Part shown: positions 7,893-29,458 of the stretch, piece by piece
How positions within the stretch are numbered: position 1 is the stretch's first letter
Layout of the letters: each line of letters starts with the position of its first letter
Virus record (IMG/VR): IMGVR_UViG_3300031088_000759
Source: a virus
Reading direction: 5' to 3' (one strand)
DNA length: 64,000 bases
The notes under the pieces: model-generated
The model's database searches: none
What the model was told of the DNA's origin: nothing
Seen by the model: the letters and a program-made list of their open reading frames with translations, nothing else
Made by a program: the position numbers and the translations under genes

Positions 7893-7894
7893 AT

Positions 7895-10059: not shown

Positions 10060-10063
10060 AAAA

Positions 10064-12325: not shown

Positions 12326-12432
12326 ATTATTTTTCCTTTTCTATTATTTTTTATGTAGATGGGCTGGAGAATGCCAGTTCATAATAAAATCTTTTCTATG
12401 TTACTTAAATGATGTTAAAGAATTGAAGAAAT

Positions 12433-12947: not shown

Positions 12948-13339
12948 CTTTCATTAGTAGTATCTTTGTGCGATTCTTTTCCTACACTTTTCATAGCTTT
13001 AAGAATCAAGTCTACATCATCTCCATCAAACTCCCAGCTTAAAGCGATTCCGTAATCTTCGCCTAATTGAGAAATTTTGTTTTTCAATTCTTGTCTTTCA
13101 GGGTCTTCTTCAAATCCCGACAATATTACCTTACTATGATACCATTTTCCAGTGTAATTCTCAGCTTTTTCAATAATTTCTTTCATTTCTTGAATATTTG
13201 GCAAATCATAATGAATAATTTCAGAATCTTCATCAATGGTGCGTAGTTCATTGAGCAATTCGTCAATTTCTTCTTCACTACATTCATGATTTGGGGCACA
13301 AGTAGAGACTCTTCGTACTTTTTCAGTCATATATATCAA
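12944..13339 (-). CDS. Hypothetical protein
   Basis: ORF track, RBS. Confidence 0.7.
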   Translation of the reverse strand: MIYMTEKVRRVSTCAPNHECSEEEIDELLNELRTIDEDSEIIHYDLPNIQEMKEIIEKAENYTGKWYHSKVILSGFEEDPERQELKNKISQLGEDYGIALSWEFDGDDVDLILKAMKSVGKESHKDTTNES

Positions 13340-13444
13340 CCTCTTTTAAATAGGTGCTTAAAAATTTAATAAGCATTTATTTACTATGAATTTGTTGATC
13401 TATTTATCAATCTCATTTGACCTCATGCCAAAAGTTCTGTGAAT

Positions 13445-14125
13445 TCACCAACCGAAATCTACTGGAACATAGACTTGTGATTGTGGTCTAATAAATTCTT
13501 TTGTTCGTGGTTTAAGAACATCTGATTCTGTTACACGAATAAGTAATCTCCAACCTGTTTTATCAGCCGGAATAGCACGGTGAACATTCCACCAGTCCCA
13601 TGAAACCCAAGCATCACTCAAAGAAACAACATCAAGTTTACTTTCTTCTACTAGAGGATTGACTTTTTGGGTCAACTCTTTGTACAAGTCAGGATTGTCA
13701 AAGTTTTCAATGTCTAATTCAAAAGGTTGGTTAACAAATTCAGTAGGTGAATCTAAACCTACAGAAATAACGTGATAATGTGGCGCAATTTCTGGCAATT
13801 CTGCTTGTTTGTCTAAGCGAGGTTTTCCCTTAGCATCAGGAAGCAGCTCTTCGCCACGCGGAACACCATCTGTGTGCCAACCAGGGATGGCAGGATACCA
13901 ACCAGGCATAAGTAATGTAACCTTTGTGTCAACTGTTATGTAGTTTTTATCCCCGACTAATGGAACAGTTTCTAAAAGTTCACGCATCAAAGGTCCACCA
14001 TACATGACAGCATTTTCTAAAGATGGACGGCGTAATACAGGAGTTGACTCCACCGCTTCCCCCGAAATATTTTCAACAACTTTTTCGTGAATAGTAATAG
14101 GGTTTTGGCTGAATACGAATTTCAT
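13445..14125 (-). CDS. 2OG-Fe(II) dioxygenase-like protein
   Basis: WHTDG (HxD), VHRA, WRLLIRV. Confidence 0.7.
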   Translation of the reverse strand: MKFVFSQNPITIHEKVVENISGEAVESTPVLRRPSLENAVMYGGPLMRELLETVPLVGDKNYITVDTKVTLLMPGWYPAIPGWHTDGVPRGEELLPDAKGKPRLDKQAELPEIAPHYHVISVGLDSPTEFVNQPFELDIENFDNPDLYKELTQKVNPLVEESKLDVVSLSDAWVSWDWWNVHRAIPADKTGWRLLIRVTESDVLKPRTKEFIRPQSQVYVPVDFGW

Positions 14126-14212
14126 AAATAATCACCTTTTCGTAGAATTGATAGTTGATAGTGAATTTTAAGAATCACATTGATTATTATATCAACTCAT
14201 CAGAAATATTGT

Positions 14213-14473
14213 TTAAATGTCCCTGTTATTGTTCTTGTTATATTTATGAACAAGATTATATCCTTCTTGAACATTGCTGAAATCTATTCCATATCCAAAT
14301 CCGTCATAGCGCTCATCAAATCTTCTATCAGTAGGACCATTGTCACCTGTCTCGGTGGTATATATAAAGTTTTCTTCATATTTGGGGCATTTTTCGTCAT
14401 CATCGTATAAAGCTACGTCAAGATCATTAGCATTACAAAAAATACACCTTCCGCCTTGATAAACATGGTTCAT
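14213..14473 (-). CDS. Hypothetical protein
   Basis: ORF track; likely start MNHVY. Confidence 0.55.
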   Translation of the reverse strand: MNHVYQGGRCIFCNANDLDVALYDDDEKCPKYEENFIYTTETGDNGPTDRRFDERYDGFGYGIDFSNVQEGYNLVHKYNKNNNRDI

Positions 14474-14710
14474 AATATAGTTATCTTTCTTAAACGTATA
14501 AATGTAATTCAAAAGTAAAAAGGAAACAGTAATAGAGTTAATTAAGTTCTATGTATTTTTACAACACTCCTGTTTCACAAGTGTCAAGATGGATCTCCCA
14601 GCTCTATCCATCTGATCACATGATTGGCTTCTCCTCGCAAGACAATAACGTTTGTTGCTAAGTATCTTAAGTTTTTAGAACAAATATTATCGAATTACTA
14701 TGTGATTCCG

Positions 14711-14780
14711 AGCGGGCGAGAAGAATCGAACTTCTACTTTCAGCTGGTCTGCTGATGTTCTACCATTAAACTACTGCCGC
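14711..14780 (-). pseudogene. Gly-like tRNA with a 6-nt loop (AGACCA)
   Basis: D and T arms intact, imperfect acceptor. Confidence 0.55.
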
Positions 14781-15112
14781 ATAACGCCCGTGGGGATACA
14801 CAGGCGGGCTTTTTAACAAGTTTAGCAATAATCCCTTATCTAACTCATTCTACGCCACCACAGCGCGTTCTATCAAGTTCTATCGCGTCCTCTGACTTGG
14901 TAAGAACTAAGATGCTGGTTATGAGTCATACATCTATTGTCATAGAAACATAAATTATCTTATCACAAAAACAAGATAATGGTGAATATAGTTTTTCATC
15001 TAATCCAATAGCCAGCAGGAATCGAACCTACTTACACCACCACTATTAAATCCATATAGTTAGCCTATTCCAAGATTATCCGTGATTAAATCAGAACTGT
15101 GTACCAGTGTTG

Positions 15113-15239
15113 AGCTTAATCGGACTCGAACCGCGTTCAAAGTGTTCCACTAAGAACTCACCATTCCGCTCATGCCAATAGTCATCAACTATCTGCATCA
15201 AAATCAACAAAGATTAGCTATTTCTTTGTCAATCAAGCT
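15113..15239 (-). ncRNA. T-arm-containing multi-helix RNA
   Basis: AGCTTGAT/ATTAAGCT closure, CGG-TTCGAGT-CCG. Confidence 0.45.
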
Positions 15240-15283
15240 TTATATTGTAGAAACTAAACCCTTATTCAAAGTTTAACATCCAT

Positions 15284-15631
15284 TCAGTTTTTGAGAAATA
15301 CACCAGGTTCGGGTAATTCATCAGGCATCAATTCGGCAAAATCGCATTCTTCTGTAATGATTGTTCCATCAGCCAACTCGATATCTCTGTAAAGAATAGC
15401 TGAATTATCCGAATAAGCGGATAGAACCTCTCTCTTGCCATCACGAACATCATTTAATACGTTTTCATCAACTTGTGAGAAGAGGAACAATGGACCACCA
15501 AGAGAACAGTCAGCATAAGAGCTAAAATAATATTGCTTTTTATTCTCATCCTCTAAAACACCTACTTGAGGTCCATCATAATAAAACCATGTTTCAAGAA
15601 GTTTCATATCATCTTTATTAAACATAAACAC
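15284..15631 (-). CDS. Hypothetical protein
   Basis: ORF track. Confidence 0.7.
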   Translation of the reverse strand: MFMFNKDDMKLLETWFYYDGPQVGVLEDENKKQYYFSSYADCSLGGPLFLFSQVDENVLNDVRDGKREVLSAYSDNSAILYRDIELADGTIITEECDFAELMPDELPEPGVFLKN

Positions 15632-15660
15632 CTGATTCTTTTAGTCAGTTATAAAAACTA

Positions 15661-15780
15661 GAAACACACCGGGGATTCGAACCCCGCTCAGATTCATTAG
15701 ACCAGTTACCACAGCCGGATTTATCCCACTGCAAGGGACTCAAACCCTATTCTTTCACTTTCGCCAATTTCGTGCATTTC
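15661..15780 (-). ncRNA. Double-T-loop RNA
   Basis: 9-bp closure enclosing two T-arm hairpins. Confidence 0.5.
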
Positions 15781-15861
15781 GTCCAAAGGATTTCTTGAAC
15801 AACCATGAATGATCAGTTCATGTCATTTCACAAAGTTTTGAACCTTCATGAAATACCTACG

Positions 15862-15933
15862 CGATTCTATGGAGACTCGAACTCCAATGACCGGATCGAC
15901 AATCCAGCATAATAACCTTTATATGATAGAACC
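15862..15933 (-). tRNA. tRNA-Asp(GUC)
   Basis: Loop TTGTCGA. Confidence 0.85.
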
Positions 15934-16009
15934 ATGTTTGACAAAATCAATTATTACATAAAATATAAATTTTGTCAAACTTTATACAACTTCTAGAATA
16001 CGAAACTCA

Positions 16010-16348
16010 TCACTTCATGATGTCTGACATCTTCACACGGTGCTCAACAATAAGCTCATCAGCCCTATGCTTAGTTCCAAAATCTCCCCAACCAGAATGA
16101 TTGAACATAACACGAACAGTAAGAGCACCATTAGCCTTCAGCTTAAAATTAGGAAAGACAAAGAAATACCCACCGAAATCCTGGTAATCCTTATCGTCAA
16201 TCAGACGAACATGATTCTCGAGATTCTTCTTTACCTTATTGATAAGAACATTCTTCTTTACCTTAATCTTCTTTGCCTCCGCAACAGTCATGTCATCCGA
16301 CACAACCAGTTTAGCAAGATTCTTCTCAAAGACTGCCTTGTTCATCAT
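16010..16348 (-). CDS. Hypothetical protein under a putative NAD+-II riboswitch
   Basis: ORF; start moved to 16348 on SD spacing. Confidence 0.75.
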   Translation of the reverse strand: MMNKAVFEKNLAKLVVSDDMTVAEAKKIKVKKNVLINKVKKNLENHVRLIDDKDYQDFGGYFFVFPNFKLKANGALTVRVMFNHSGWGDFGTKHRADELIVEHRVKMSDIMK

Positions 16349-16358
16349 TCTAACCATT

Positions 16359-16394
16359 CTCCTTGTTTTTTCTCCGGCGTAGGAATAACCCGGA
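16359..16394 (-). promoter_or_regulatory. Mini-NAD+-II-like riboswitch, copy 1
   Basis: TCCGG-GTT-ATTCCT-ACG-CCGGA-GAAAAAAC-AAGGAG; same motif precedes pnuC. Confidence 0.7.
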
Positions 16395-16484
16395 CTTTTT
16401 ATCTTTCTTGTTATGTTTTAATAATACCATAAAACATAAATTTTGTCAAACTTTTCAAAACTGTTCATTATAAACTTTTAAATC

Positions 16485-16877
16485 TTAAACAGTAGTGTAA
16501 ACTGTTGTAGTAGTCTTCTTCTCCAAAAGTTCAACAATCTTCTCATCAGGGATATAGAAATTCCTATATTCCCAATCAATAATTTCCATACCGAAACCAA
16601 AAACCTGAACATCCTCATCATTCTCACGAAGACAAATCAAAGCAATATTCTTGTCATATCCAAAAATACTCTCTTCATCTTCAACAACCCACACCTGATA
16701 ATGACGACCACTCTCAGTGTAAACATCCATAAAATCTTCAAAAAGAAAAACCTTAGAAAGCTCACTGAACGTTTCAACAGACTTTGAAGGCTGATAATCA
16801 TCAACAACCACAGTTACAGAACTATTGATCAAATCATTATAGACATCATCCGCTGAAATTTTTGTGAACTCTGGCAT
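16485..16877 (-). CDS. Hypothetical protein
   Basis: AAGGAG RBS, own promoter. Confidence 0.75.
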   Translation of the reverse strand: MPEFTKISADDVYNDLINSSVTVVVDDYQPSKSVETFSELSKVFLFEDFMDVYTESGRHYQVWVVEDEESIFGYDKNIALICLRENDEDVQVFGFGMEIIDWEYRNFYIPDEKIVELLEKKTTTTVYTTV

Positions 16878-16973
16878 TGCCTTCTCCTTGAGATGATTTT
16901 ACTTTTCAAAAGAAGCATACCACATTTAACAAATAGTGTCAAATAGTTTTCACGGATTTAACAAATTATTACC

Positions 16974-17456
16974 TTAAAGTGGTAAAGAAACTTGCTCTTG
17001 TTCAGTCTCAGAAAAAATTATAATTTCCAAACTATCTTCTGTAAAATAGAACTTTCCTTCAATGTACTTATCCTCTGAAGAAATTCCATGAAAATCAACC
17101 GCACTCCCGTTAAACATAGCATCAGTTGTTTCGTCATTCTCTAGATAATCAATATTGTCAAGTTCTGTTTCTTCTTTAAGAAGTCCTAAAATCTTGTCCC
17201 TGTCAATATGAATTTCTTTAAAAGTTTTGGGTTCTGCATAATAGTTTTGAATTGTAACGGGCGTATCAGAAGCTATCTTTACAGGACTATTGAAAGCAAC
17301 TGCTGTAATTATAATTACAGCTACAATACTTGCTCCTCCTACCAAAAGCCCGCTAAGCTCATCTAAATCATGAAAAACAAAAATAAGTATAATGACAATA
17401 GGGATAATAATAACAACAGGTAGAAGCCATTCAGGTAACCATTCAATACTAAACAT
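16974..17456 (-). CDS. Membrane protein with two TM segments
   Basis: Likely start MFSIEWLP; hydrophobic N-terminus. Confidence 0.7.
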   Translation of the reverse strand: MFSIEWLPEWLLPVVIIIPIVIILIFVFHDLDELSGLLVGGASIVAVIIITAVAFNSPVKIASDTPVTIQNYYAEPKTFKEIHIDRDKILGLLKEETELDNIDYLENDETTDAMFNGSAVDFHGISSEDKYIEGKFYFTEDSLEIIIFSETEQEQVSLPL

Positions 17457-17535
17457 TTTACAATCCAACTTTCGCTTTGACAGATAAAAAGAAAAGTGAA
17501 AAATACGATATAAACAAATGGTGTTTTTCACTTCG

Positions 17536-17722
17536 TGGCAGGTAATGGATTCGAACCACTCCAGCATTTCAAAGAGATCAACCTCTGAAACAATCAAACT
17601 AAACACATTTCATTACTGAACATCAGGTACCTTAATGTTCTTTAACTACTTTTGTATTCCCGCTTGATTTAGTGCAACTATCTGACCGATAGCCTCTGCT
17701 TCACCACGCAAAGCAACCTACC
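17536..17722 (-). ncRNA. Giant tRNA-like RNA (187 nt) with an inserted multi-helix domain
   Basis: GGTAGGT/ACCTGCC-A acceptor, D arm, T arm. Confidence 0.65.
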
Positions 17723-17779
17723 ATATTAAACATTTCCATCAATTGCTCAATAATCAGATCAACTATTATTCAACAATCG

Positions 17780-17863
17780 TGCGGATGAGAGGACTCGAAC
17801 CTCCACGCTTTTACCAAGCACCAGGGCCTAAACCTGACGTGTCTACCATTTCACCACATCCGC
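17780..17863 (-). tRNA. tRNA-Leu(UAG)
   Basis: Loop TTTAGGC. Confidence 0.9.
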
Positions 17864-18280
17864 AAAACAATGGAATAAGGATAGTTAATCCCGCACCATC
17901 ACATACCATCAATTGTCAGCGTTCAAGGATTACAAGTGCTCTACAATTGTTTTACAGCAGGTATTTACCGAGTCTCAGAAACTACCTATATGGATCTTCA
18001 CAGTGCCATATTACTGACCAAGGAACAACCTTGATAAAACTATACTAACATAGATAAGAATATTTGTCAACTCATGTTGAGAGAATCTACGAGAGGTTAT
18101 AGCAATCCACACAATGCTTTGTTAAGGGATGAGAAATCGTTTTTGAACAATCTACACTTATTATTGTTTCGTGCTTTCTGGGACCGCTGTGAGGCTTTTA
18201 AAAACAAAAAAGTGCCGATTATGATGGAGAAAAGATTTGAGAATAAATTTAAACCATTAACCATAATCGGCACTTTTACG

Positions 18281-18361
18281 CGGAAGGCACGAGGCTCGAA
18301 CTCGCAACCCTATCGGGCATCTCCGTAGCAAGGAGACTGCTTTCCAATTCGCTTACCTTCC
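18281..18361 (-). tRNA. tRNA-Ser(GCU)
   Basis: Loop TTGCTAC. Confidence 0.85.
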
Positions 18362-18517
18362 ATAATTCGTAAAGCGCGTATTCTTTAACAAGGGCGCTAC
18401 CCCCGGAACCTGGCTTTACTTTTTCAGGTTTTGTGTGCTCAAAGCCTTTGCTCTGAGCCTCAAAGATTAGAGAAGCCCGCTTTTATCCAAAACTTAATTT
18501 GGAAGCCAGCCTCTCAG

Positions 18518-18591
18518 TACCCCGTACCAGATTCGAACTGGTGTCAATTTGAGTGAAAATCAAATATCCTAGGCCGCTAGATCAACGGGGC
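18518..18591 (-). tRNA. tRNA-Glu(UUC)
   Basis: Loop TTTTCAC. Confidence 0.9.
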
Positions 18592-18832
18592 GTACATTAT
18601 TCACGTTAACTAACTTTTAACTAATAATTCTTAAATATCCACCGTCCCAAACCTGAGACACGCACCGTAGTGATACGACAATTTCAATTTAAGCAAATCT
18701 CTATTTTATTTTTTCAACAAGTTTATTCTAACATATTAAAATAATTTTGTCAAATTATACTAACTTTTGAAAACCTATCCATGAACATTATTTACACAGA
18801 GGGAATAGGTGTCTAACAAAAAATCCTATTTT

Positions 18833-18957
18833 TAGCACACTGGCATAGGCAACCAGTTAACTAATTGATTATTAAAATTCCTGCTTGAATGTATTTTTAA
18901 TAATCTTCTCGTGCTATTAACAACTGAAACTAACTTCCCAGCAGACCTATTAGTTTC
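18833..18957 (-). ncRNA. Multi-pseudoknot RNA 3' of tRNA-fMet, copy 2
   Basis: See 2592-2719. Confidence 0.7.
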
Positions 18958-18961
18958 TTCG

Positions 18962-19035
18962 TAGCGGGAGCAGGATTCGAACCTGCGACCTCTTGGTTAT
19001 GAGCCAAGCGAGCTACCGAACTGCTCCACCCCGCG
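18962..19035 (-). tRNA. Initiator tRNA-fMet(CAU)
   Basis: CGCGGGGTGGAGCAG start, loop CTCATAA. Confidence 0.9.
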
Positions 19036-19106
19036 ATGTTTTACATACTTATCTTATCAAAGAAATATTGTTTTGTCAAATGTTTTAAAACTTTTCTTCA
19101 ATATCG

Positions 19107-19177
19107 AGCGGATAACGAGAATCGAACTCGTGTCAACTGCATGGCAAGCAGTTATAATACCATTATACCATATCCGC
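19107..19177 (-). tRNA. tRNA-Gly(GCC)
   Basis: Loop TTGCCAT. Confidence 0.9.
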
Positions 19178-19217
19178 GTATTCATTATTAAATATCAAAA
19201 CAATTTTTTAATACACG

Positions 19218-19290
19218 CTCCCCCACCTGGACTCGAACCAGGAACCCTCCGGTTAACAGCCGAATGCTCTGCCAATTGAGCTATAGAGGA
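19218..19290 (-). tRNA. tRNA-Asn(GUU)
   Basis: Loop CTGTTAA. Confidence 0.9.
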
Positions 19291-19431
19291 ATGTGGTAAG
19301 CCCTGCAGAACTTACCAAGAGTCTTTGTTGAGATTGTTAAACCTCTTTTTGAAACCCTGAAAAAATACGACCAGTTTCGGAAAACGACCGTAAGCAATGT
19401 AGTTGAAAACATTTTATGAATGATTCAACCG

Positions 19432-19503
19432 AGCGGGTAGCGAGAATCGAACTCGCGTCGTCTGCTTGGAAGGCAGAAGTAATAGCCGTTATACCATACC
19501 CGC
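19432..19503 (-). tRNA. tRNA-Gly(UCC)
   Basis: Loop CTTCCAA. Confidence 0.9.
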
Positions 19504-19601
19504 ATGATTGGCTGTTCCTGACATTTACCCGCATGTCCAAAATACGGGCACCAATTCTAAACTATTTAATTATATTGATTAACCTTTTATCAAGGCTTAG
19601 T

Positions 19602-19673
19602 ATACTAAATGGGACTCGAACCCATGCTGACACTCCTTCTCGGAGCCGCTCTAGCCAACTGAGCTATTAGTAC
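19602..19673 (-). ncRNA. tRNA-like RNA with a 5-nt GAGAA loop in place of the anticodon
   Basis: Canonical D and T arms. Confidence 0.6.
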
Positions 19674-19783
19674 AATTTTTTTGACAATGAACACCATACT
19701 TGAAGAAACCCTAATCTCTTCTCCGATTTGAAACATTGCTTTATTCAAAAAAGTTAGGGCAATTTTGAACAAAGAAAATAAAT

Positions 19784-19861
19784 AACGTTTTCTGGAATCG
19801 AACCAGGTCGCCATCTTCCCGGATGGTTATTAACGAGCATTGCCATTATGCTAAAAACATT
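19784..19861 (-). ncRNA. tRNA-like RNA with a bulged extended anticodon arm
   Basis: 8-bp acceptor, 4-bp T stem, CCATC-CGGGAA-GATGG. Confidence 0.55.
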
Positions 19862-19868
19862 ATTTAAG

Positions 19869-19942
19869 TACCCCCCCTGGGACTCGAACCCAGACTCTGC
19901 GGATTAAAAGTCCGAAGCTTTAACCAATTAAGCTAGAGAGGC
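19869..19942 (-). tRNA. tRNA-Lys(UUU)
   Basis: Loop CTTTTAA. Confidence 0.85.
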
Positions 19943-19954
19943 ATACATTATAAA

Positions 19955-19977
19955 ACACTATTAAATTATCAATCAAC
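19955..19977 (-). promoter_or_regulatory. boxA-like leader element (representative copy)
   Basis: GTTGATTGATAATTTAATAGTGT between a promoter and the first tRNA. Confidence 0.55.
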
Positions 19978-20192
19978 TTCTTATGAAACTATTCTATCAA
20001 ACTTTTTCCTGCTTGTCAAACTGTTTTAAAACTTTTTTGTCAAACTGTATCTTCAAAAATCTCGTTATTACTCTGAATAAGTCCTCAACTTTTGTTGATA
20101 CACATATCTTAACATACTGCATAGTAATTTGTCAATTTACAAAATATATTTCTTGAATTTATCAGCCTATCATTTAGCAATGATGAATTCAG

Positions 20193-20265
20193 AGCCAATG
20201 GTGGGAATTGAACCCGACGACTTCCATCGTACCAAGATGGCGATCTACCACTGATCTACATTGGC
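20193..20265 (-). tRNA. tRNA-Thr(GGU)
   Basis: Loop TTGGTAC. Confidence 0.8.
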
Positions 20266-20273
20266 AAGGTTTA

Positions 20274-20438
20274 AACTATGGCAGGATTCGAACCCGCATG
20301 AACCGCTTCACAAGCGGCAGTTTTGCCGTTAAACTACATAGTAGGAAATGCTTTCACACACCCTTTTCACATCCGCACTGAAATATCGACTTTCAGATAC
20401 CTCTCTCGAGCGCATTAATCCAGTTTATGCTATACGGA
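20274..20438 (-). ncRNA. Tandem tRNA-like pair, copy 2 (His-like GUG module plus GNRA module)
   Basis: Loop TTGTGAA; CTC-GAGA-GAG. Confidence 0.6.
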
Positions 20439-20555
20439 ACACCATATGACTACTTATTCACAATCACTATACACTATGATCACTTGTGTACAACTTTTGT
20501 AAATTTTCTTCACTTAGAGGAAAATTAATGAATTGTATACTATCATTAATTTTCG

Positions 20556-20627
20556 TAGTCATGGAGAATTTCGAAATCCCAACATCTTACATGTAAAGCA
20601 AGCGCTCTTCCTTTGAGCTACATGACT
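20556..20627 (-). tRNA. tRNA-Val(UAC)
   Basis: Loop TTTACAT. Confidence 0.85.
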
Positions 20628-20635
20628 GTGTTTTA

Positions 20636-20803
20636 AGTTATGGTAGGAATCGAACCTACTTAAAGTGCTCCCACGCACCCTGTTTTTACCATTAAACTAC
20701 ATAACAGGAGAAACTTTCATCAACCCTTTTTTCATCGTTATCAGGTGCTCGATAGCCTGAATACCTGTTCCCAGTGCATTATCCCGATTTTATGCTATAA
20801 CGA
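20636..20803 (-). ncRNA. Tandem tRNA-like pair, copy 3
   Basis: CTG-GGAA-CAG replaces the anticodon arm. Confidence 0.6.
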
Positions 20804-20924
20804 AAACCATATGATTACTTGTTAAAACTTCCATAACATTATGTACACTTGTGAAACTTCTTTTTTAACTTTTGTCACTTAGGTAAAGTTCAACAAGAAT
20901 GTTAACACTGCTTATTAAACTTCG

Positions 20925-20996
20925 TAGTCATGGAGAATTTCGAAATCTCAACCCCTTGCGTGTAAAGCAAGTGCTCTTCCTTTGAGCTACACGACT
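20925..20996 (-). tRNA. tRNA-Val(UAC)
   Basis: Loop TTTACAC. Confidence 0.85.
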
Positions 20997-21342
20997 AAAA
21001 TTCTATTGTTTACCCGCGTGCAACCTCTAACACCGGCCCTCTCAACTTTTATTGAGTGTGCTTCCTTTATTTCAGCTTCTTAGATGAAGCCTTCCTTGCT
21101 TTACACCACACAATAGAATAAGTTTTTATAAAATTATCAAACATCTTTTCTTACATTAGAAGTATAACATATTAAAAAATAATTGTCAAGTTTTAAAAAA
21201 TAGTAAGGAAATCATAGTCTGCACTCTCAGAAGCAACTCATCAAACAATCGCACTAACGACAACAATTTACTCACCGGTTTTCAACTGTATCGCACTACC
21301 TGTTGAGGCTATTCTTGAGCAAGGTAGTTTTCTTTCCATACG

Positions 21343-21415
21343 TGCCATTCCTCGGGGTCGAACCGAGAACCTTCCGGGCTTCAACCGGACGCTCTTCCAA
21401 CTGAGCTTGAAAGGC
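21343..21415 (-). tRNA. tRNA-Phe(GAA)
   Basis: Loop TTGAAGC. Confidence 0.85.
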
Positions 21416-21530
21416 AAACCCTCGTAAACGTCTCATCTAGAGAAGTCTACAAGGAATAAACTTGTATAAAGCACTCAGAACTGCTCTATATGCCTTTTTA
21501 AGCGACTTATAGGTTCTTCTTCACACTTCG

Positions 21531-21839
21531 TGGCGCAGACCGGATTTGAACCAATGATATGACATTATGAGCGTCATTTGAATTCTCCCCGTAGCTAAAG
21601 CCAGGGGATTCTTACCTCAAACAGCCTGCGCCAGCGAACCAGCAACAGGTCTTACATTCTCAACAGTAAAAGGGTTAAAACCAGCCCTATATAAAACATT
21701 ATATCAAATAATCTTGATATAATGCTGTTTGTATGAAAATTGTTTTTATTTTTGTTTAATTGTTTTCCTCCCCCATAGCTAAAAGCAAGGGGCATCCAAC
21801 AACAAAACGATTGGTGATACCGAACTTCACTACCGCGCA
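21531..21839 (-). pseudogene. tRNA-Met(CAU) split by a mini IS605-type element (5' half 21814-21839, 3' half 21531-21577)
   Basis: The halves rejoin into a complete cloverleaf. Confidence 0.85.
21578..21813 (-). mobile_element. Non-autonomous IS200/IS605-family mini element (left end plus omegaRNA/right end)
   Basis: Ends match the tnpB element at 40430-41678; ATCAC target, TTCAA right end. Confidence 0.9.
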
Positions 21840-21933
21840 TCAACTTAGGTAACGGTAACCCGCTGAGAGAACAATTAATCCCTAAGTAAATTAATCGCTA
21901 ATATTTTTCAATATTCTGTTATTTCACAGCCCG

Positions 21934-22006
21934 TGGACACTATGAGAATTGAACTCACCACACCGATCTTGCAAGGATCAGTCGCCCCCTTGGTACATGA
22001 GCGCCC
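21934..22006 (-). tRNA. tRNA-Ala(UGC)
   Basis: G3:U70, loop CTTGCAA. Confidence 0.8.
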
Positions 22007-22102
22007 AAATGTTCAACAATCAAAAATTATTCAACAAATTTTCCAACACTGACTTCAGTATAACATATTTCATAACATTCTGAAGTTTTTACAGCGATTT
22101 TA

Positions 22103-22252
22103 TCAACTCTTTGGCAAACTACTGCGAGAAAACTTAGCTTTAGACTTCGAAGCTTCTGCTGCTTTTTTCCACAATTCCTCATCATTAAGAACAGCCAATT
22201 CATCATCAGTCAAATCTTTATTTTCTTCAAACTTTTCTACATTATTATTCAT
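22103..22252 (-). CDS. Small hypothetical protein (49 aa)
   Basis: AGGAG RBS, hand translation. Confidence 0.55.
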   Translation of the reverse strand: MNNNVEKFEENKDLTDDELAVLNDEELWKKAAEASKSKAKFSRSSLPKS

Positions 22253-22504
22253 ACTTCGCTCCTAAGTTTTAAAAAATCCAATATCATTTGCTTAGACATA
22301 GAAAAATGTGAACACCCAAATGATCAGGTGTAATGTAAGTCAATTTCTTTAAATCTAAATGTAATGATACGTGATCATTAAAAAATTATAAAAACTTGTT
22401 AAATAACCTTACCTTTGTATTGTTGTTCTTTTTGAACCAATATTTCAAGCAACTGATACAAGCAACTGATAATAGCCAAAGGTATTTATTGTTATTGTTT
22501 AGCG

Positions 22505-22591
22505 CGGAGAGCAAGGGAATTGAACCCTCACCGCTGTTACACGGACATGTTTTCGAGACAAGCACGACAAACCAATATTCGACTACTCTCC
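22505..22591 (-). tRNA. tRNA-Ser(CGA)
   Basis: Loop CTCGAAA. Confidence 0.8.
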
Positions 22592-22627
22592 AAAGCAACA
22601 ATTGCTAATACAACATATATTGTATCG

Positions 22628-22700
22628 CTCCCAGGGTAGGAATCGAACCTACGATGGCTCTGATTCAAAGTCAGAGTTGCGTGCCAGCACACACCGGGGA
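22628..22700 (-). tRNA. tRNA-Gln(UUG), atypical D arm
   Basis: Loop CTTTGAA. Confidence 0.7.
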
Positions 22701-22730
22701 ATAAATATTTTGAACAATTTTTATTCAAAG

Positions 22731-22810
22731 CGGAAGGCACGGGATTCGAACCCGCAACCCTATCGGGCGACCGATTTCAAGTCGGTGTGCTAACCATTCG
22801 CCTACCTTCC
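22731..22810 (-). tRNA. tRNA-Ser(UGA)
   Basis: Loop CTTGAAA. Confidence 0.85.
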
Positions 22811-23053
22811 AAAATTCTTGAAGACTGTTGTTTTTCTCAGCTCTTTCACAAGGTTGCCACAAAAATTAAGACCATAGTTTAGAGGGCTTGTGATCCCACT
22901 TCCACTAATTCTCATCAATGGTATCAGATCTTCAAGAACAAGATTATTGAAAATACACTATTAAAATTATCAAATATTTTTAAACTTATTATGAATAAGT
23001 ATAACACAATATTTTTCTTTTGTCAAATTTATTGTTTAAATATTTGATAAATG

Positions 23054-23125
23054 AGCCTATGGTGCGAATTGAACGCACGACTTCCATCGTACCAAGATGG
23101 TGATCTACCACTGATCTACACAGGC
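23054..23125 (-). tRNA. tRNA-Thr(GGU)
   Basis: Loop TTGGTAC. Confidence 0.85.
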
Positions 23126-23148
23126 AAAATATGTTTGAAAATTTTAAG

Positions 23149-23224
23149 CACGCCTGACAGGATTTGAACCTGCATGTATCCGTTAACCTTTCAGCTGGTT
23201 CGAAGCCAGAGGGTTTACAAGCGC
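23149..23224 (-). tRNA. Rearranged tRNA-Arg(UCG), D-loop-like segment 3' of the anticodon
   Basis: CTGG-CTTCGAA-CCAG then TAACGGATA. Confidence 0.7.
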
Positions 23225-23254
23225 ATATCTTACACTCCGCTAAAAGTATAAGAA

Positions 23255-24020
23255 AGGTAATCAGACTGAGAATACATCTTCTTATCAGCAAACTTTTGTC
23301 AGATTATGGATTCCTGACGTTTCCACGATATCCCTACCGTATTTGCCATGCCTGGTAAGTTAAGCTCACCAATCTTTATGTTATACGCTACTCCACAGAT
23401 TTCAATTCGACAAACAGTTGCAAGCCATTCATCTGCATTACTTTCTTATGAACTTTACAAAACCTTGCGAGCTTCATAAAGACTTGATTCTCAAAGAGTC
23501 AAGCATTAAGGCACTTTCGCACATAACAGGAAAAGTCTTTCGCTTTTTACAATATACAGGAGTCGAACCTGTAACGCATCGTTTTGAGACGATTGTTCTG
23601 CCATTGAACTAATATTGGGAATAATGACTGGAGATGTGCTTTTCCATGAAGCTTCGCAACCTTTGGGATTACAAAATACTTCACACCTCTCCCGCTTTCA
23701 TTGTCACACTACTCACAGTCAAAGCTTTATAATGAATTCGCCAATCCATTAATAAACTTTATAGTATCCGCCTTTGATTGACAGTCTCAGACTAAAATAC
23801 CTTCCTACAAGAAGTTTCTGTTTATTGTAACCCACTCATCTACCCTGCGTGGATAGCTTTCTTTACACCGATTGGCTCTGAGAAAGATGTGGCAACTCAC
23901 AAAAACCGTATCCAGTTCCACCTGAATACTTAACTCATAGAAATTGTATGATTTACCTTTTATCAAGGCGATAGATTGTCACACTACCTTTCACTAACTT
24001 ACGCTAGCTTATGCGTCATA
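23255..24020 (-). ncRNA. Probable GOLLD RNA with an embedded tRNA-like element
   Basis: About 770 nt structured tract with no credible ORF in a tRNA array; AAAAGCGAAAGAC..CGAAAG..CGCAAG..TGTATTCTCAG resemble my recollection of the GOLLD 3' domain. Confidence 0.6.
23549..23618 (-). pseudogene. Trp-like tRNA with a 6-nt loop (CTCAAA)
   Basis: D and T arms intact; lies inside the GOLLD candidate. Confidence 0.55.
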
Positions 24021-24028
24021 CCGCTTTG

Positions 24029-24108
24029 CGGAAGGCACGAGACTCGAACTCGCAACCCTATCGGGCATCATCGTTCCAGGATGACTGCTTTCCATTCGCT
24101 TACCTTCC
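24029..24108 (-). tRNA. tRNA-Ser(GGA)
   Basis: Loop CTGGAAC. Confidence 0.85.
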
Positions 24109-24274
24109 AGGAGATCCACCAAGGTTTTCAGCCAAGATCTTTTTAAACCGTTTTGAAAAGTTTAAAATGTGTTATGAATATTTTACACCAGTGGATAATG
24201 AAAGATTGTCATAAATTTAATTAAACAATTCTTTAAAAATTCAGGTATAAATCACGAAAGATTCACTCCGAAAG

Positions 24275-24346
24275 TGCCTCCACAAGGATTCGAACCTTGG
24301 ACCTGTCGCTTAAAAGGCGAAAGCTCTACCGCTGAGCTATAGAGGC
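24275..24346 (-). tRNA. tRNA-Lys(UUU)
   Basis: Loop CTTTTAA. Confidence 0.9.
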
Positions 24347-24449
24347 ATAAACAATATTCTGCTAAGAAGGAATTGTTAAACCTTGAATAATTGCTTTATT
24401 TAATTCGTCTTTATCAATCATATTTTTACCTTACTTTTACCCCGCTAAG

Positions 24450-24525
24450 CGCGCCCAAAGGGACTCGAACCCCCATGTATCCATTAGCCTTTCTACTCGT
24501 CCGTAGCGAGAGGGCATATAGGCGC
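24450..24525 (-). tRNA. Rearranged tRNA-Arg(ACG), D-loop-like segment 3' of the anticodon
   Basis: CTCG-CTACGGA-CGAG then TAATGGATA. Confidence 0.7.
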
Positions 24526-24579
24526 ATTATTTAACTATTCTACCTCACTCTTTCTTCAAAGTTTTTGGTAAAATAAAAG

Positions 24580-24654
24580 GGTGCCATACGAGATTCGAAC
24601 TCGCACTCTCCCGAGTCACAGTCGGGGGCTTTAACCAGTTAAGCTAATGGCACC
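24580..24654 (-). tRNA. tRNA-His(GUG), G-1 encoded
   Basis: Loop CTGTGAC, G-1:C73. Confidence 0.9.
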
Positions 24655-24789
24655 ATGATAATAAAATTCGCTAACATTCAACAAACTTATTATTATATTT
24701 TTCATACTATTTTTAAATCCTCTATGAAAAGGATTATACAACACCCTATTTGCTCTTAGTGATTTTCCTGAAGGAAGAAACAAGGGTTA

Positions 24790-24863
24790 AGCGGGAACAC
24801 GAAGAATCAAACTCCGGCCAAGAGGTTTGGAAGCTCTTGTGCTATCACTACACCATATTCCCA
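24790..24863 (-). pseudogene. Degenerate tRNA-Gly(UCC)
   Basis: Enlarged loop, T-loop TTTGATT. Confidence 0.5.
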
Positions 24864-24900
24864 TACAACAACATGTTCATAAAACATATTGAAGAATAAT

Positions 24901-24980
24901 TATCCAAGACAGGATTCGAACCTGCAAGTTATTGTCAATCCTTTTTCAAGGCAAGTGTTTACCATTCCACCACTCGGATA
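24901..24980 (-). ncRNA. Leu-like tRNA body with a CCTT-GAAA-AAGG hairpin instead of an anticodon arm
   Basis: Intact acceptor, D and T arms. Confidence 0.6.
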
Positions 24981-24983
24981 AAG

Positions 24984-25056
24984 TGCCTTCCCTCGGGGTC
25001 GAACCGAGAACCTTCCGGGCTTCAACCGGACGCTCTCCCATCTGAGCTTGAAAGGC
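24984..25056 (-). tRNA. tRNA-Phe(GAA)
   Basis: Loop TTGAAGC. Confidence 0.85.
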
Positions 25057-25181
25057 AAGATCCCATAAACGTTTCATCACGAAAAATTTATGGAACATAT
25101 TAAAATCAACTGGTTTAAATAATTCCCTAAGATTGATGAAGTCTTAGTTAGGTTATCATCCTAAAATTATTCAGACCTTCG

Positions 25182-25252
25182 AGGCGCGTAGGAGAGTTGA
25201 ACTCCTCTAGGCTGTTTTGCAGACAGCTACCTGGCCGCTCGGTCAACGCGCC
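25182..25252 (-). tRNA. tRNA-Cys(GCA)
   Basis: Loop CTGCAAA, U73. Confidence 0.9.
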
Positions 25253-25357
25253 ATATGTTTTACTTAACCCGCAGGTCAAGTAAATTTTTTTAAATATATT
25301 CATAAAAATATTATACCAAGAAAAAGAGTATTTTGTTAATATTTTTTCAAATATTAG

Positions 25358-25446
25358 TCCATAACCGAAGAATCGAACTTCGCAAAAATAATAAATATTC
25401 ACCATATTATCAGTATGGCAGCTCCAACCAGTTGCGTTTGTTATGG
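25358..25446 (-). tRNA. tRNA-Ile(GAU)-like, long variable arm
   Basis: Loop CTGATAA, weak D arm. Confidence 0.6.
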
Positions 25447-25737
25447 AAAGCTGAATAGATTGCCCCGTCCACGCCTCTATTCTGTTATGCCTGCCATTCC
25501 ATACATAACACCCATTTATTCATTCACCATTATGTTTGTCAGCCCCTTTAAAAGTAAAGTAGATTACCTTTACTCCCACGCTCAAACATTACCACCCCTT
25601 GATTTAATAATATGGATAGCCCCAATTCTAAAAAGTTAATAACCATTTTAGAAACTGTTTGCTTATACAGCTTTCACTGGTATCTGTTTCAGAACGGCTA
25701 TTAACCGTAAGGGAATCCCACCCTTTTATAAGCAAAG

Positions 25738-25818
25738 TGCCCTCAGAGAGATTCGAACTCTCACTCCTTGCGGAACTTGTGTTTGAAACAAGCGTGTCTA
25801 CCATTCCACCACAAGGGC
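25738..25818 (-). tRNA. tRNA-Leu(CAA)
   Basis: Loop TTCAAAC. Confidence 0.85.
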
Positions 25819-25826
25819 ATAATTTA

Positions 25827-25930
25827 AAGAATATGGCGAATAGGAATCGAACCTATTTCAGCCTGCGCGCAAGTGCTGGTCTCCATGACTCTTTGGGATT
25901 CGAACCCACCCTGCCCGGGACCATATTCTT
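25827..25930 (-). ncRNA. Double-T-loop RNA
   Basis: 10-bp closure AAGAATATGG/CCATATTCTT, two GGTTCGA hairpins. Confidence 0.55.
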
Positions 25931-25960
25931 CAAAATTTTTCAACTTTTTTCAAAGTTAAG

Positions 25961-26044
25961 TGCGTATGAGAGGATTCGAACCTCCAAGCCCTATACGGGC
26001 AACGGCTTCTTAGACCGTCGTGTATACCGTTCCACCACATACGC
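25961..26044 (-). tRNA. tRNA-Leu(AAG), long variable arm
   Basis: Loop CTAAGAA. Confidence 0.85.
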
Positions 26045-26218
26045 ATATTGAACGAAGAAAAGAAAGCCTCTTACTTTCTACTGCCGGGAGTTTTTCGCAT
26101 AATCCGCCGACTATGCTACTCGCCCCCAGAGTGCCACCTGGTTAATTCCAGCTTACACCATTTCTTCTTCTATTTATTCAACAACAAGTGCGACCAAGTT
26201 GTCAAACAAATATTTCAG

Positions 26219-26299
26219 TGGTAGTGACAGGATTTGAACCTGCAAGTCCGAAGAGCCTGATTTACAGTCAGGTGAGCCAGCCAATTGCTCAACACTACC
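26219..26299 (-). tRNA. tRNA-Tyr(GUA)
   Basis: Loop CTGTAAA. Confidence 0.9.
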
Positions 26300-26497
26300 A
26301 TGCTTTTTACTCTATTTATTTTTCAAACATTTTCTTCAACTTCTTATACAACTATCCTAACATGTTGAAAATATTTTGTCAAGTATCTTCAACAATTAGT
26401 TCAACAATCTTTAACAAGCGTTTTAACGAACTTTCTACAATGTTTTGATGAACTATTCGTTAAGCCTTTAAAAACCTGTGAGAAGGTTTTTAAAGCG

Positions 26498-26568
26498 TGC
26501 CCCCGGTAGGAATCGAACCTACGTCCATGGATTAAAAGTCCAGTGCTAATCCCCTCAGCTACAAAGGC
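26498..26568 (-). tRNA. tRNA-Lys(UUU)
   Basis: Loop CTTTTAA. Confidence 0.8.
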
Positions 26569-26614
26569 ATATATAATAAAATATACAAGTTATTCATTTT
26601 TGTTTAAAAACGTT

Positions 26615-27397
26615 CTAAACAAAGCTCCCCGAATAACACTCTCTGGAACAATATTTTCTTTTTTGTGCTGGGACACTGTTAAAGGTTCTTTTACACTTTA
26701 AACATACTGTGTAATTTTTAATACTGGAAAATCTGTCAATAGAAGATTCTTGTATCTTTTTCAAACTTTCCTTATTGTGCTTTTTCCCTTTGAAACCTGT
26801 ATTAGTCAAAGCAAAGCCTTCATGTTTTAAAAATGCTGTTACTTTACGTTTACTCAATCCCAGTTCTTTCGATATTGTTCTTGCAGATTTATTTTCATTA
26901 ATAAACTTTTTAATAATTATTTTTTTATATTTCTTCTCAAACTCTTTCTTTTGTGATTCTAAACTACATTCTAAACACATAGAAGAATCTATTTTTGTGG
27001 TAAATTGAGATCCACAGACACAACTCTTTGTGATTCTCTTTCCACCTTTATATAAAGAATTTGCAATTTTAATTTTAGTTTCTTCTGAATGCTTCCATTT
27101 TTCATTTAAAGAAGGCTTCTTACCATAGTATTTAGGACTCATCTTATTAAACCATTTGATTTCTAAAACATTCAAAATACCATTATCGTATTCGCATTCT
27201 TCCAATACACGAAGAACAATCAAATCAGGAACAGCACCATTAGAATGATACCACTCAACAAAATCTTTGCGCTTATGACTCTTAGATTTTAATTCTTTTA
27301 AATGTGATTTCCAGCGCTGTTCAATATTCTTTGACAAGCCAACATATAAACACTCATTATTATGAGCATCAAAAATACCATATATTCCTACTGTCAT
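26615..27397 (-). CDS. GIY-YIG homing endonuclease with NUMOD3; catalytic domain close to 5998-7023
   Basis: MTVGIYGIFD..YVG..; HSEETKIKI. Confidence 0.85.
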   Translation of the reverse strand: MTVGIYGIFDAHNNECLYVGLSKNIEQRWKSHLKELKSKSHKRKDFVEWYHSNGAVPDLIVLRVLEECEYDNGILNVLEIKWFNKMSPKYYGKKPSLNEKWKHSEETKIKIANSLYKGGKRITKSCVCGSQFTTKIDSSMCLECSLESQKKEFEKKYKKIIIKKFINENKSARTISKELGLSKRKVTAFLKHEGFALTNTGFKGKKHNKESLKKIQESSIDRFSSIKNYTVCLKCKRTFNSVPAQKRKYCSRECYSGSFV

Positions 27398-27504
27398 ATT
27401 TTGCTCTTTTCGCTGGTTAAATACTTGTTTCTTACTATGTATCTTACCAATAAAAAAATATTTTTGACAGTTTTTACTAAGAATTTTCAATCATTCTTAG
27501 CAAG

Positions 27505-27589
27505 CTCCCCGACCTGGATTCGAACCAGGACAAGCATTTTCTGTTTACTGAGTCAGAGTCAGTCGTGTTGCCAATTACACTATCGGGGA
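27505..27589 (-). tRNA. tRNA-Gln(CUG), long variable region
   Basis: Loop CTCTGAC. Confidence 0.8.
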
Positions 27590-27762
27590 ATAAAAGTAAA
27601 TGTAAAAAGTATAGGACTTATGAAACAATGTTTTCACTGAGCCATTCACCTAATTTTGTTTTCTTCTTTTTACATCCAGATCCTAATTTTTCATAAACCT
27701 TTAAAGAACTTATTGTTCAATTGCAGATTCGAACTGCTTTACGAAAAATTATTCACCTTTCG

Positions 27763-27836
27763 TCTGAGCAGGTGGATTTGAACCACCGATCTCTCCTGTC
27801 CAAGAGGAGTGACTTACCTGACTAGCCTACACCCAG
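27763..27836 (-). tRNA. tRNA-Pro(UGG)
   Basis: Loop CTTGGAC. Confidence 0.8.
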
Positions 27837-27984
27837 AAATTGCGACTATGAACAAGCATTCATAGAGGCTTTACGATCATTTTTTTAGAGACATGCCGAA
27901 GTCTCGTTCTTACCGTCCATCCCACGTCAGGGCGACTTCTGTCTAGGTGATACAACCTGTTAAGAATTTGCTTGAATTCTTACG

Positions 27985-28059
27985 TCGGGATAGCAGGATT
28001 TGAACCTGCAGTCTCTTAGCCCCTAACTAAGCGGATTAACCAAATTTTCCTATATCCCG
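27985..28059 (-). tRNA. tRNA-Pro(AGG), rare A34 anticodon
   Basis: Loop TTAGGGG. Confidence 0.85.
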
Positions 28060-28292
28060 TTATTAAAACAAACCATTATCACTCTGCCGCAGATACTATA
28101 GGAGAGCTCAGGAGTCGAACCGTAATGCCTATTCCCTATAGGATAATGATTTGCTAAAAGTGTGTGAAAGAAACCCGGCGTTCAGCCCAACATAAACTAG
28201 CCTAGTATATGTCCGCAACGGGTTTTACAAGGGTGCTCAACTTCCACAATATTGTATTTTCACATGGCTTGTGCTAATTCTACAATATTTCG

Positions 28293-28365
28293 TCGGAAAG
28301 AAAGGAATCGAACCTTTCCTAAAGCGCCCCAAACGCCTCGTGCTCAGCCAATACACCACATTCCG
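28293..28365 (-). tRNA. tRNA-Pro(UGG)
   Basis: Loop TTTGGGG. Confidence 0.8.
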
Positions 28366-28467
28366 ATACATAGAACCTGCGTCTATTTTCTTAGCCTTTC
28401 ACTAAGTTTGCCGAGTTTCACGGTCCTGTCCAGAAGTAATTCCATTATACTATTAGCCCATGAAAAG

Positions 28468-28630
28468 TGGACTAAACGGGAATCGAACCCGTTTTTTCTA
28501 GATCCTCGCAGAAGAGGTGGCTTCGATACCACTATTCATCAATAACTTTTTAAAAATTATCGCTCTTCCATGCATGTTCATAGCCCCCGTTCCATCGCTT
28601 GAACATTGCCACACCTTTTCGTATAGCCCC
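28468..28630 (-). ncRNA. Short tmRNA-like RNA with an Ala-type acceptor
   Basis: GGGCTA/TAGTCC-A with G3:U70, T arm, no D stem. Confidence 0.5.
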
Positions 28631-28679
28631 GTTTTTGTAATATATTGAAAAATTAAGTATTTTGTTCATATTACAAAAG

Positions 28680-28760
28680 TAGCTCAGGTGGGATTCGAAC
28701 CCACAATCCATAAGGCGGCTGATTTTAAGTCAACTGTGTATACCATTCCACCACTGAGCC
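28680..28760 (-). tRNA. tRNA-Leu(UAA)
   Basis: Loop CTTAAAA. Confidence 0.9.
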
Positions 28761-28845
28761 ATGTATAGGAGGTCTCGACTCTCCGAAGCAAGACTTAAAG
28801 CGCCTTGCCCGCACCACAATAGGGAGTTGAACCCCAGCTTTACCG

Positions 28846-28918
28846 TGCCCCATCAGGGATTCGAACCCCGGACCTGCTCCTTAAGAGGGAGAAGCTCTAA
28901 CCGCTGAGCTAATGAGGC
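28846..28918 (-). tRNA. tRNA-Lys(CUU)
   Basis: Loop CTCTTAA. Confidence 0.9.
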
Positions 28919-29105
28919 AAATAATAGGTAGCTGAGGGCGTTGTTAACGCTTCTATTACCAGTCAGCTTTCAATATATCTATCCCACTCTGGAACAGTCA
29001 CGAACTGTTGGTGGATTCGACCTATTAAAAATCTTTCGCTATTTGTTTATCAATAACTTAACTATAACATGTTGTTAAAATATTGTCAAGTTTTTTGAAG
29101 AAACG

Positions 29106-29190
29106 CTCCCCAACCTGGGTTCGAACCAGGACAAGCAGTTTATGTCTCCTGATCCAAAGTCAGGCGTGTTGCCAATTACACCATTGGGGA
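29106..29190 (-). tRNA. tRNA-Gln(UUG), long variable region
   Basis: Loop CTTTGGA. Confidence 0.8.
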
Positions 29191-29272
29191 ATAAACTCAT
29201 TTGTAAAAACGAGTTAAGTAAACCTTAGTCAATCATTTATATTAGTTTAAATTACAGAATATTGCTCCTGCG

Positions 29273-29343
29273 CTCTTCCACTTGGATTCGAACCAAGAGT
29301 CACTCCTTAACAGGGAGTTGGTTTGCCCTTAACCGATAGAAGA
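29273..29343 (-). tRNA. tRNA-Asn(GUU)
   Basis: Loop CTGTTAA. Confidence 0.8.
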
Positions 29344-29376
29344 ATATTTTGTATAAAATTCTATAAGAATAATACG

Positions 29377-29458
29377 CTCTCGCACCTGGACTCGAACCAG
29401 GAGGTATAAATACACAGGTTAACAGCCTGCCCCGCTGCCAGTTACGGTTTATACGAGA
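29377..29458 (-). tRNA. tRNA-Asn(GUU), long variable arm
   Basis: Loop CTGTTAA; GTAT-TT-ATAC arm. Confidence 0.75.

Follow-up and report, generated by a model that had tools for sequence, protein, structure and literature searches.

The cloverleaf order of parts is usually treated as fixed for tRNAs that work on bacterial ribosomes. In the permuted and split tRNA genes of algae and archaea, the order of parts in the gene departs from the cloverleaf, the permutations are circular, and the transcripts are spliced to canonical mature tRNAs. tmRNA, the Y RNA YrlA and mascRNA reach the tRNA elbow or L shape by other connectivities, as domains of longer RNAs or without a decoding anticodon. The same is said of viral TLS in part of PMC9976931. 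Like the genes described below, the D-armless mitochondrial tRNA-Ser discussed in a portion of PMC7609411 has no D hairpin between the acceptor and anticodon arms. Also like them, the allo-tRNAs, selC* and 8/4 tRNA-Ser/His (Mukai et al., PMC5389517, in the part consulted) are non-standard, occur in bacteria and phages, are missed by tRNA finders and in some cases carry Arg or Ile anticodons.

The window, a 64,000-nucleotide stretch of virus DNA (IMG/VR record IMGVR_UViG_3300031088_000759), contains two 76-nt genes on the minus strand, with the ends given in the earlier note, in which the parts of a tRNA-Arg stand in a different order. From the 5′ end, both have a 7-bp acceptor stem, U8, an 8-nt connector ending in CCCU, and an anticodon arm with a 4-bp stem and a 7-nt loop (UCG or ACG); the 3′ half consists of a GAAAGG linker, the segment YUAAYGGAUACAU, a 5-bp T arm with a normal loop, and a discriminator G. 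This layout had been read from the letters beforehand, along with the lack of a D arm in the normal place, and both readings held for each gene. A canonical tRNA has a D hairpin after U8, between positions 9 and 26, and both genes lack it; the 7-bp acceptor stem, 5-bp T stem and 7-nt T loop are those of canonical RF00005.

The tRNA-Arg(UCG) gene (23149..23224, minus strand) and the tRNA-Arg(ACG) gene (24450..24525, minus strand) share a design that we call type I; canonical numbering of the reordered genes is our own assignment. In the UCG gene, the strand equivalent to D-stem positions 22-25 lies directly after U8-A (23212..23215), and is followed by the anticodon arm (23195..23209, anticodon 23203-23201) and, after a GAAA linker, by the strand equivalent to positions 10-13 (23185..23188); covariation identifies both strands. 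A D-loop-equivalent segment (23174..23184), which by inferred numbering contains A14, A15 and G18-G19-A20 (23181-23179), leads to U48 and a canonical T arm (23157..23173). The discriminator G is at 23149 and CCA is not encoded. In the ACG gene, the corresponding positions are 24516-24513 (strand 22-25), 24504-24502 (anticodon), 24489-24486 (strand 10-13), 24482-24480 (G18-G19-A20) and 24450 (discriminator G). Both genes end in G73-C74, as do most neighbouring array tRNAs. A contig of run X1, which may be the source sample, spans 23000-24700 with no differences to the window, and a 151-nt contig from another study is identical to 24434-24528.

Both genes lie within a phage tRNA array (549..29458) in which ARAGORN reports 58 genes, all on the minus strand and none for Arg. 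As the earlier note had anticipated, tRNA finders overlook the pair: ARAGORN skips both, and their scores against the Rfam tRNA model (28.2 and 22.8 bits) fall under its 29-bit gathering cut-off. The claim that they are the only Arg tRNAs holds within the window; the array extends as far as position 549 and may continue past the window. The suggested covariance-model search found only these two genes above 24 bits in the window (92 and 90 bits, with a family model built partly from the two genes themselves). Single-sequence folding of each gene was no better than that of shuffles (z -0.05 and -0.60) and is uninformative, so the case for the reordered structure rests on comparison.

RNAalifold, given 74 aligned copies alone, returned a three-way structure in which 15 of 19 pairs had changed on both sides. 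Its acceptor stem has 7 bp; a helix of 3 bp, separated from the 4-bp anticodon arm by a 2x6 internal loop, closes that arm; and 12 unpaired nucleotides lead to the T arm. In canonical numbering the 3-bp helix is D-stem 23-25 with 12-10; the 22-13 apposition beside it is mostly U-U (276/297 type I genes listed). A scan in which both D-stem strands were left free yielded at least 107 distinct genes, 99 after dereplication, and among these listed copies pairs 25-10, 24-11 and 23-12 were each formed in 99/99. Pair 25-10 was CG in 89 copies, UA in 4, GC in 3 and AU in 3; 24-11 was CG in 78, UA in 14 and GC in 7; and 23-12 was CG in 45, AU in 36, GC in 15 and UA in 3. Shuffles reached at most 90, 82 and 57 for the three pairs and none of 2000 reached 99, a comparison that ignores kinship. 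The two window genes themselves differ at 23-12 (A-U and G-C).

The earlier note had proposed that a D-stem equivalent forms and that the stems covary. A relocated, covarying stem is supported, but its register was off by one: the pairing is RCC/GGY. In the CCU/AGG register no two-sided change was seen, and the shifted pair was present in 0/13 and 1/24 copies with a non-G at position 10 or 11. The RCC/GGY register gives a chain order that reads 1-8, 22-45, 10-20, 48-73 in the aligned copies, with two inner blocks exchanged and normal ends. At the level of comparative analysis, the secondary structure shown is a three-way junction of the acceptor stem, the T arm, and a D stem that is joined to the anticodon arm by an internal loop and closes it; every helix covaries. 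The alternative connectivity proposed beforehand is thus supported by covariation of the D stem, as it is by covariation of 18/55 and by the tracking of Arg anticodons by A20 (both below). We infer that three backbone links alone differ from normal tRNA (8 to 21/22, 45 to 9/10 and 20 to 47/48), and these join residues that we take, from the yeast tRNA-Phe structure, to lie close together in the core. The search patterns fixed many of the conserved core bases, so the invariance of these bases is not evidence.

An anticodon-blind core pattern matched 57 viral loci, 38 of them with the full element; it also matched 98 loci in metagenomes, of which 96 were full, 1 ran into a contig end and 1 was broken. 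A loose NCG pattern gave 120 loci, 13 of them with the full element by filter. Together with the window genes, this first set amounted to 100 distinct genes, every one with an Arg anticodon (ACG 47, UCU 37, UCG 9, CCU 4, GCG 2, CCG 1), and all six Arg anticodons are present in the family. The covariance model led to diverged copies in Streptomyces phage Mildred21 and others. Among them were an Ile-GAU gene whose GG is followed by U, a UCG gene that differs in its D stem, and a second core design. A wider set was assembled with four more scans and a parser that does not require the D stem, giving 396 rows; two of these scans covered 20 and 40 of 64 database parts, and the counts are therefore lower bounds. 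We dropped 25 of the 396, 19 as misparsed canonical or unclear and 6 as apparent further reordered variants. The remainder includes at least 297 distinct type I genes, which have the GAAA linker (199 Arg, 95 Ile, 2 CAU and 1 Val), and at least 74 distinct type II genes, all Arg, in which A20 was fixed by the pattern.

Type II has a UGGC strand with a GYGCAU partner, an apparent bulged G and no GAAA linker (e.g. L281:11520-11594, L228:826-899). Its 10-25 position is G-G or A-G in 74/74 copies listed, so its core differs and canonical numbering fits it less well; it may represent a second origin. Six reordered copies with other linker lengths belong to neither type (L307:196-268, L348:182-258, L419:192-270, L555:400-476, L624:271-344 and L627:357-434). 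Copies L580:269-346, L405:284-360 and L510:284-359 are one Val (UAC) and two CAU with U20 and A73, the CAU copies perhaps being lysidine Ile tRNAs.

Cultured carriers, judged by sequence, are Mildred21 (four genes), Microbacterium phage A3Wally, Rhodococcus phage NiceHouse, Alishewanella phage Slicko01 and Pseudomonas phage vB_PsaM_M1, and blastn with type I queries matched 44 to 77 Streptomyces phage records per query. Under 40 blastn matches listed there was no annotation in 38, an unannotated record in 1 and a hypothetical CDS in 1. Two other copies, both Arg, are mislabelled, as tRNA-Phe in Mildred21 (L281:16508-16583) and as tRNA-Ser in Slicko01 (L723:396-474). In NiceHouse, a hypothetical CDS overlies the reordered gene (L725, about 586-660). 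In A3Wally (L282), tRNAs appear to be labelled with the anticodon read as a codon. Two carrier phages have amber (CUA-anticodon) tRNAs (L291:7838-7910, L294:7669-7744). Adjacent pairs of reordered genes occur in G015 (141088-141246), G018 (79283-79449), G022 (51079-51247) and G027 (57472-57639); their anticodons differ where read, which suggests tandem duplication followed by anticodon change. A scan of prokaryotic genomes with the pattern for one subset gave 2 matches, neither tRNA-like, and plasmid blastn with one query gave none. As far as these searches reach, the family is widespread in phages, mostly unannotated, and consists of Arg and Ile genes.

Arg identity is assigned to A20, C35, U/G36 and A/G73 in the part of PMC9976931 consulted, whose text prints 'U/C36'; G36 follows as a determinant from the CGN codons. 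Both window genes carry A20, C35, G36 and G73, position 20 being our own assignment. When A20 was fixed and the anticodon left free, the matches listed were Arg in 105/107, with 1 Ile and 1 Val; when A20 was excluded, the 94 listed were 92 Ile and 2 CAU, with no Arg. The suggestion that the A after GG is the ArgRS identity base therefore agrees both with the anticodons that it tracks and with the determinant published in PMC9976931 (in the part seen). Among the copies listed, Ile genes have U after GG in 94/95 and A73 in 95/95, and Arg type I genes have A/G73 in 182/199; these discriminator bases likewise match the determinants published in PMC9976931. The label tRNA-Arg stands for the two window genes and fails as a limit of the family, to which Ile genes also belong. 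Arg and Ile copies are built on one core sequence, so one of the two forms probably arose from the other by a switch of identity, with joint changes to the anticodon, 20 and 73.

The Arg, Ile, Met and Val synthetases are all of subclass Ia, and class I synthetases approach the tRNA from the side away from the variable loop. One may speculate that this approach explains why only these identities tolerate the moved links, with the proviso that the search patterns were seeded on Arg copies. In the window, ACG and UCG genes would together cover the CGN box; of the 570 Arg codons in 51 ORFs, 272 belong to that box. Genes with UCU or CCU anticodons were not found in the window.

In addition to the window, 34 records were used to measure the replacement of canonical genes, each over 35-55 kb surrounding the reordered gene; 29 of the arrays had at least 20 canonical tRNAs; 2 of 36 carrier records had no covariance-model match at 1e-6. 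In the 29 arrays, a canonical gene of the same anticodon accompanied the reordered gene in 4 of 42 cases, where 25.3 were expected. A canonical ACG gene was found in 0/15 arrays with a reordered ACG gene versus 9/14 of the others, and a canonical UCU gene in 2/11 versus 13/18. Without the near-duplicate G002 the figures were 4/40 versus 71/128 (Fisher p 1.5e-7, for lineages that are not independent). Both forms of one anticodon occur together in G021, G028, G031 and Mildred21 (GAU), and in A3Wally (ACG), which is outside the 29-array set. Around 99 short loci, another tRNA lay nearby in 83, on the same strand in 384/386, with Arg the commonest neighbour. An ArgRS domain was absent from 5/5 near-complete carrier genomes.

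The most serious alternative is that these RNAs are folded tRNA mimics, decoys for ArgRS/IleRS or for a tRNA-cutting defence, that deliver no amino acid on the ribosome. It would fit the facts that only synthetase-facing marks are shown to be kept, that a canonical twin co-occurs in a few phages, that other odd tRNAs lie in the same array, and that the anticodon stem has 4 pairs, 27-43 being weakened to U-U in 245/297 type I genes listed. A decoy would not, however, be expected to replace the canonical gene as extensively as the 4 of 42 cases indicate, to keep U33 (100/100) and a purine at 37 (100/100) in copies found with anticodon-blind or partly blind patterns, or to move its anticodon among all six Arg triplets. 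T stems of the G49-U65 type are also kept, as are C74 (289/297 type I genes listed) and CCA (complete in 96/297). We consider mimicry unlikely, and working tRNAs the probable reading.

Covariation at the elbow bears on a second alternative, that these are D-armless tRNAs with a long variable loop, in which GG(A) is conserved for some other reason and no elbow forms. Canonical contacts include G18-U55, G19-C56 and U8-A14 (PMC7609411, in part). A pattern with G55 fixed and position 18 free returned 17 loci, 9 of them with a reordered gene, and these had A18-G19 in 9/9, while hundreds of family members have G18 with U55. One G55/A18 copy (L206) surfaced independently of this pattern, and canonical tRNAs of the same phages with G55 have A18 in 17/18 (by a crude parse of 885/960 tRNAs). 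The GG-A segment after the stem, which the earlier note called D-loop-like, accordingly gains the support of nine covarying copies. A15 accompanies U48 in 289/297 type I genes listed, a combination largely fixed by the search patterns. In the proposed fold, the single strand before the T arm would do the work of the D loop, forming U8-A14, A15-U48, G18-U55 and G19-C56, and the predicted overall shape is the normal L. The lack of a D hairpin and the absence of the short D stem from single-sequence folds are what a D-armless tRNA would lead one to expect; three covarying D-stem pairs, A18 with G55, and a base after GG that follows amino-acid identity are not, and we find this alternative hard to credit.

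It is harder still to credit that the genes are scrambled and that their transcripts are cut and religated to a canonical cloverleaf, as with permuted and split tRNA genes. RNA repair enzymes are encoded (a polynucleotide kinase (PNK) in the window, and an RNA ligase and PNK in Mildred21), but three cuts and joins would be required. The genes are 75-78 nt long, with no spacer, intron or bulge-helix-bulge at the junctions and with acceptor strands that flank the gene in normal order, and the fixed linkers suggest that they belong to the mature fold. Decayed pseudogenes or chance matches, for which the low Rfam tRNA scores and near-zero folding z-scores might be cited, can be dismissed given 221 clusters at 90% identity among at least 297 type I copies, 99.2% of paired cells in the family alignment against 70.4% in shuffles, a fixed length, and covariation that contradicts decay.

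On comparative grounds, then, the reordered genes probably encode working tRNAs that are cut from the array transcript, CCA-completed and charged by the host ArgRS. RNase P and 3′ trimming would free the tRNA, the host would complete its CCA, host ArgRS would read A20, C35, G36 and G73, and the charged tRNA-Arg would read CGN codons during infection. No RNA contigs covered either gene, and contigs cannot show the absence of a transcript; the one match inside the ACG gene, an 18-nt piece at 24458-24475, is without meaning.

Why the reordered form is kept is a matter of tentative guesses. Colicin D cleaves tRNA-Arg, and Ile-tRNA is the target of some GNAT toxins. According to parts of PMC10264068, PMC11464382 and PMC11555353, tRNAs encoded by phages can restore translation when defences attack tRNAs. 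Our leading guess, held at somewhat less than even confidence, is escape from defences that cut or modify tRNAs; neutral replacement comes next, and nuclease resistance of the reordered tRNAs is speculation. The whole proposal, put forward with reserve, is of a natural class of translating tRNAs with a three-way-junction backbone and no splicing. The class would be spread over large phages whose hosts belong to several bacterial phyla, with two or more core designs and almost exclusively Arg and Ile identities, and it would be retained because relocating the backbone evades tRNA-targeting defences while host synthetases and the ribosome still accept the RNA.

The window comes from a large phage-like genome with a tRNA array, a GOLLD RNA, and GIY-YIG, HNH, Thg1, PNK and SpoU methylase genes. 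The GOLLD RNA (23263..23691, minus strand; Rfam 230.9 bits) lies directly upstream of the UCG gene, as an element separate from the tRNA. In four soil metatranscriptomes of one study, a near-identical phage is represented by RNA contigs that cover 23324-24017 with one difference each; because they reach 24017, the start of the GOLLD RNA probably lies about 330 nt further upstream than that of the Rfam match. At 23548-23618 the GOLLD RNA contains a tRNA-like insert whose anticodon loop has 6 nt; tRNAs in a GOLLD linker are mentioned in part of PMC12286853. Other tRNA-like genes have abnormal anticodon loops or arms and are unassigned or missed by ARAGORN (7812-7892, 14710-14780, 20635-20706, 19783-19861), and long variable regions occur on Ile, Phe-like, two Gln and Asn tRNAs, where they are normally short (10332-10416, 24901-24979, 27504-27589, 29105-29190, 29376-29458). 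GIY-YIG and HNH endonuclease genes interrupt the array (5998-7023, 8695-9444 and 26615-27490, minus strand), and a TnpB-like gene is at 40470-41591. We read the SpoU methylase (42072-42641), polynucleotide kinase-phosphatase (51720-52877) and Thg1 (59526-60275), all on the minus strand, as a phage tRNA maintenance set; the methylase is closest to TrmH (G18 methylase), below cut-off. Genes with PASTA, G5 and NlpC/P60 domains hint at a Gram-positive host, and a ligase tblastn for the phage host gave about 29% identity at best.

If the working-tRNA reading is true, synthetases and ribosomes need shape and not connectivity, and several hundred phage genes form a natural test system; cultured Streptomyces phages carry reordered genes, so the idea is testable now. 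Because these genes are left blank or mislabelled, the phage Arg and Ile tRNA counts behind ideas of codon compensation and defence evasion are too low. Engineered tRNAs may also gain new scaffolds from the reordered ones. The layout has no family in Rfam 15, the Rfam YrlA and mascRNA models gave no match above noise on either gene, and full-text searches of open-access literature did not find it described, nor does it appear in the parts consulted of the tRNA accounts in PMC7609411, PMC5389517, PMC9897764, PMC12286853 and PMC9976931. An earlier report is improbable. We regard the genes as real, as a variant not previously described in the literature searched, and as probably working like tRNAs although they fail the cloverleaf definition.

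Compared with canonical class I tRNA-Arg and tRNA-Ile (RF00005), the reordered genes share the 7-bp acceptor stem, the 5-bp T stem with its 7-nt loop, the 7-nt anticodon loop, U8, G18-G19, the A20/C35/73 determinants, a length of about 76 nt and a place in tRNA arrays. They differ in having no D hairpin, in the inverted order of blocks 10-20 and 22-45, in a three-way rather than four-way junction, and in a 4-bp anticodon stem. Allo-tRNAs and selC*, as far as the part of PMC5389517 consulted describes them, keep the cloverleaf order with 8/4 or 9/3 acceptor/T stems and a long V arm, whereas the reordered genes are 7/5 in a new order. D-armless mitochondrial tRNA-Ser has lost the D stem and loop (PMC7609411, in part); the reordered genes keep both, relocated, with a normal T loop and the marks of an elbow. 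TLS-type domains sit in longer RNAs or lack a decoding anticodon, in contrast to the genes described here. Unlike permuted and split tRNA genes, finally, the reordered genes have normal ends and two swapped inner blocks.
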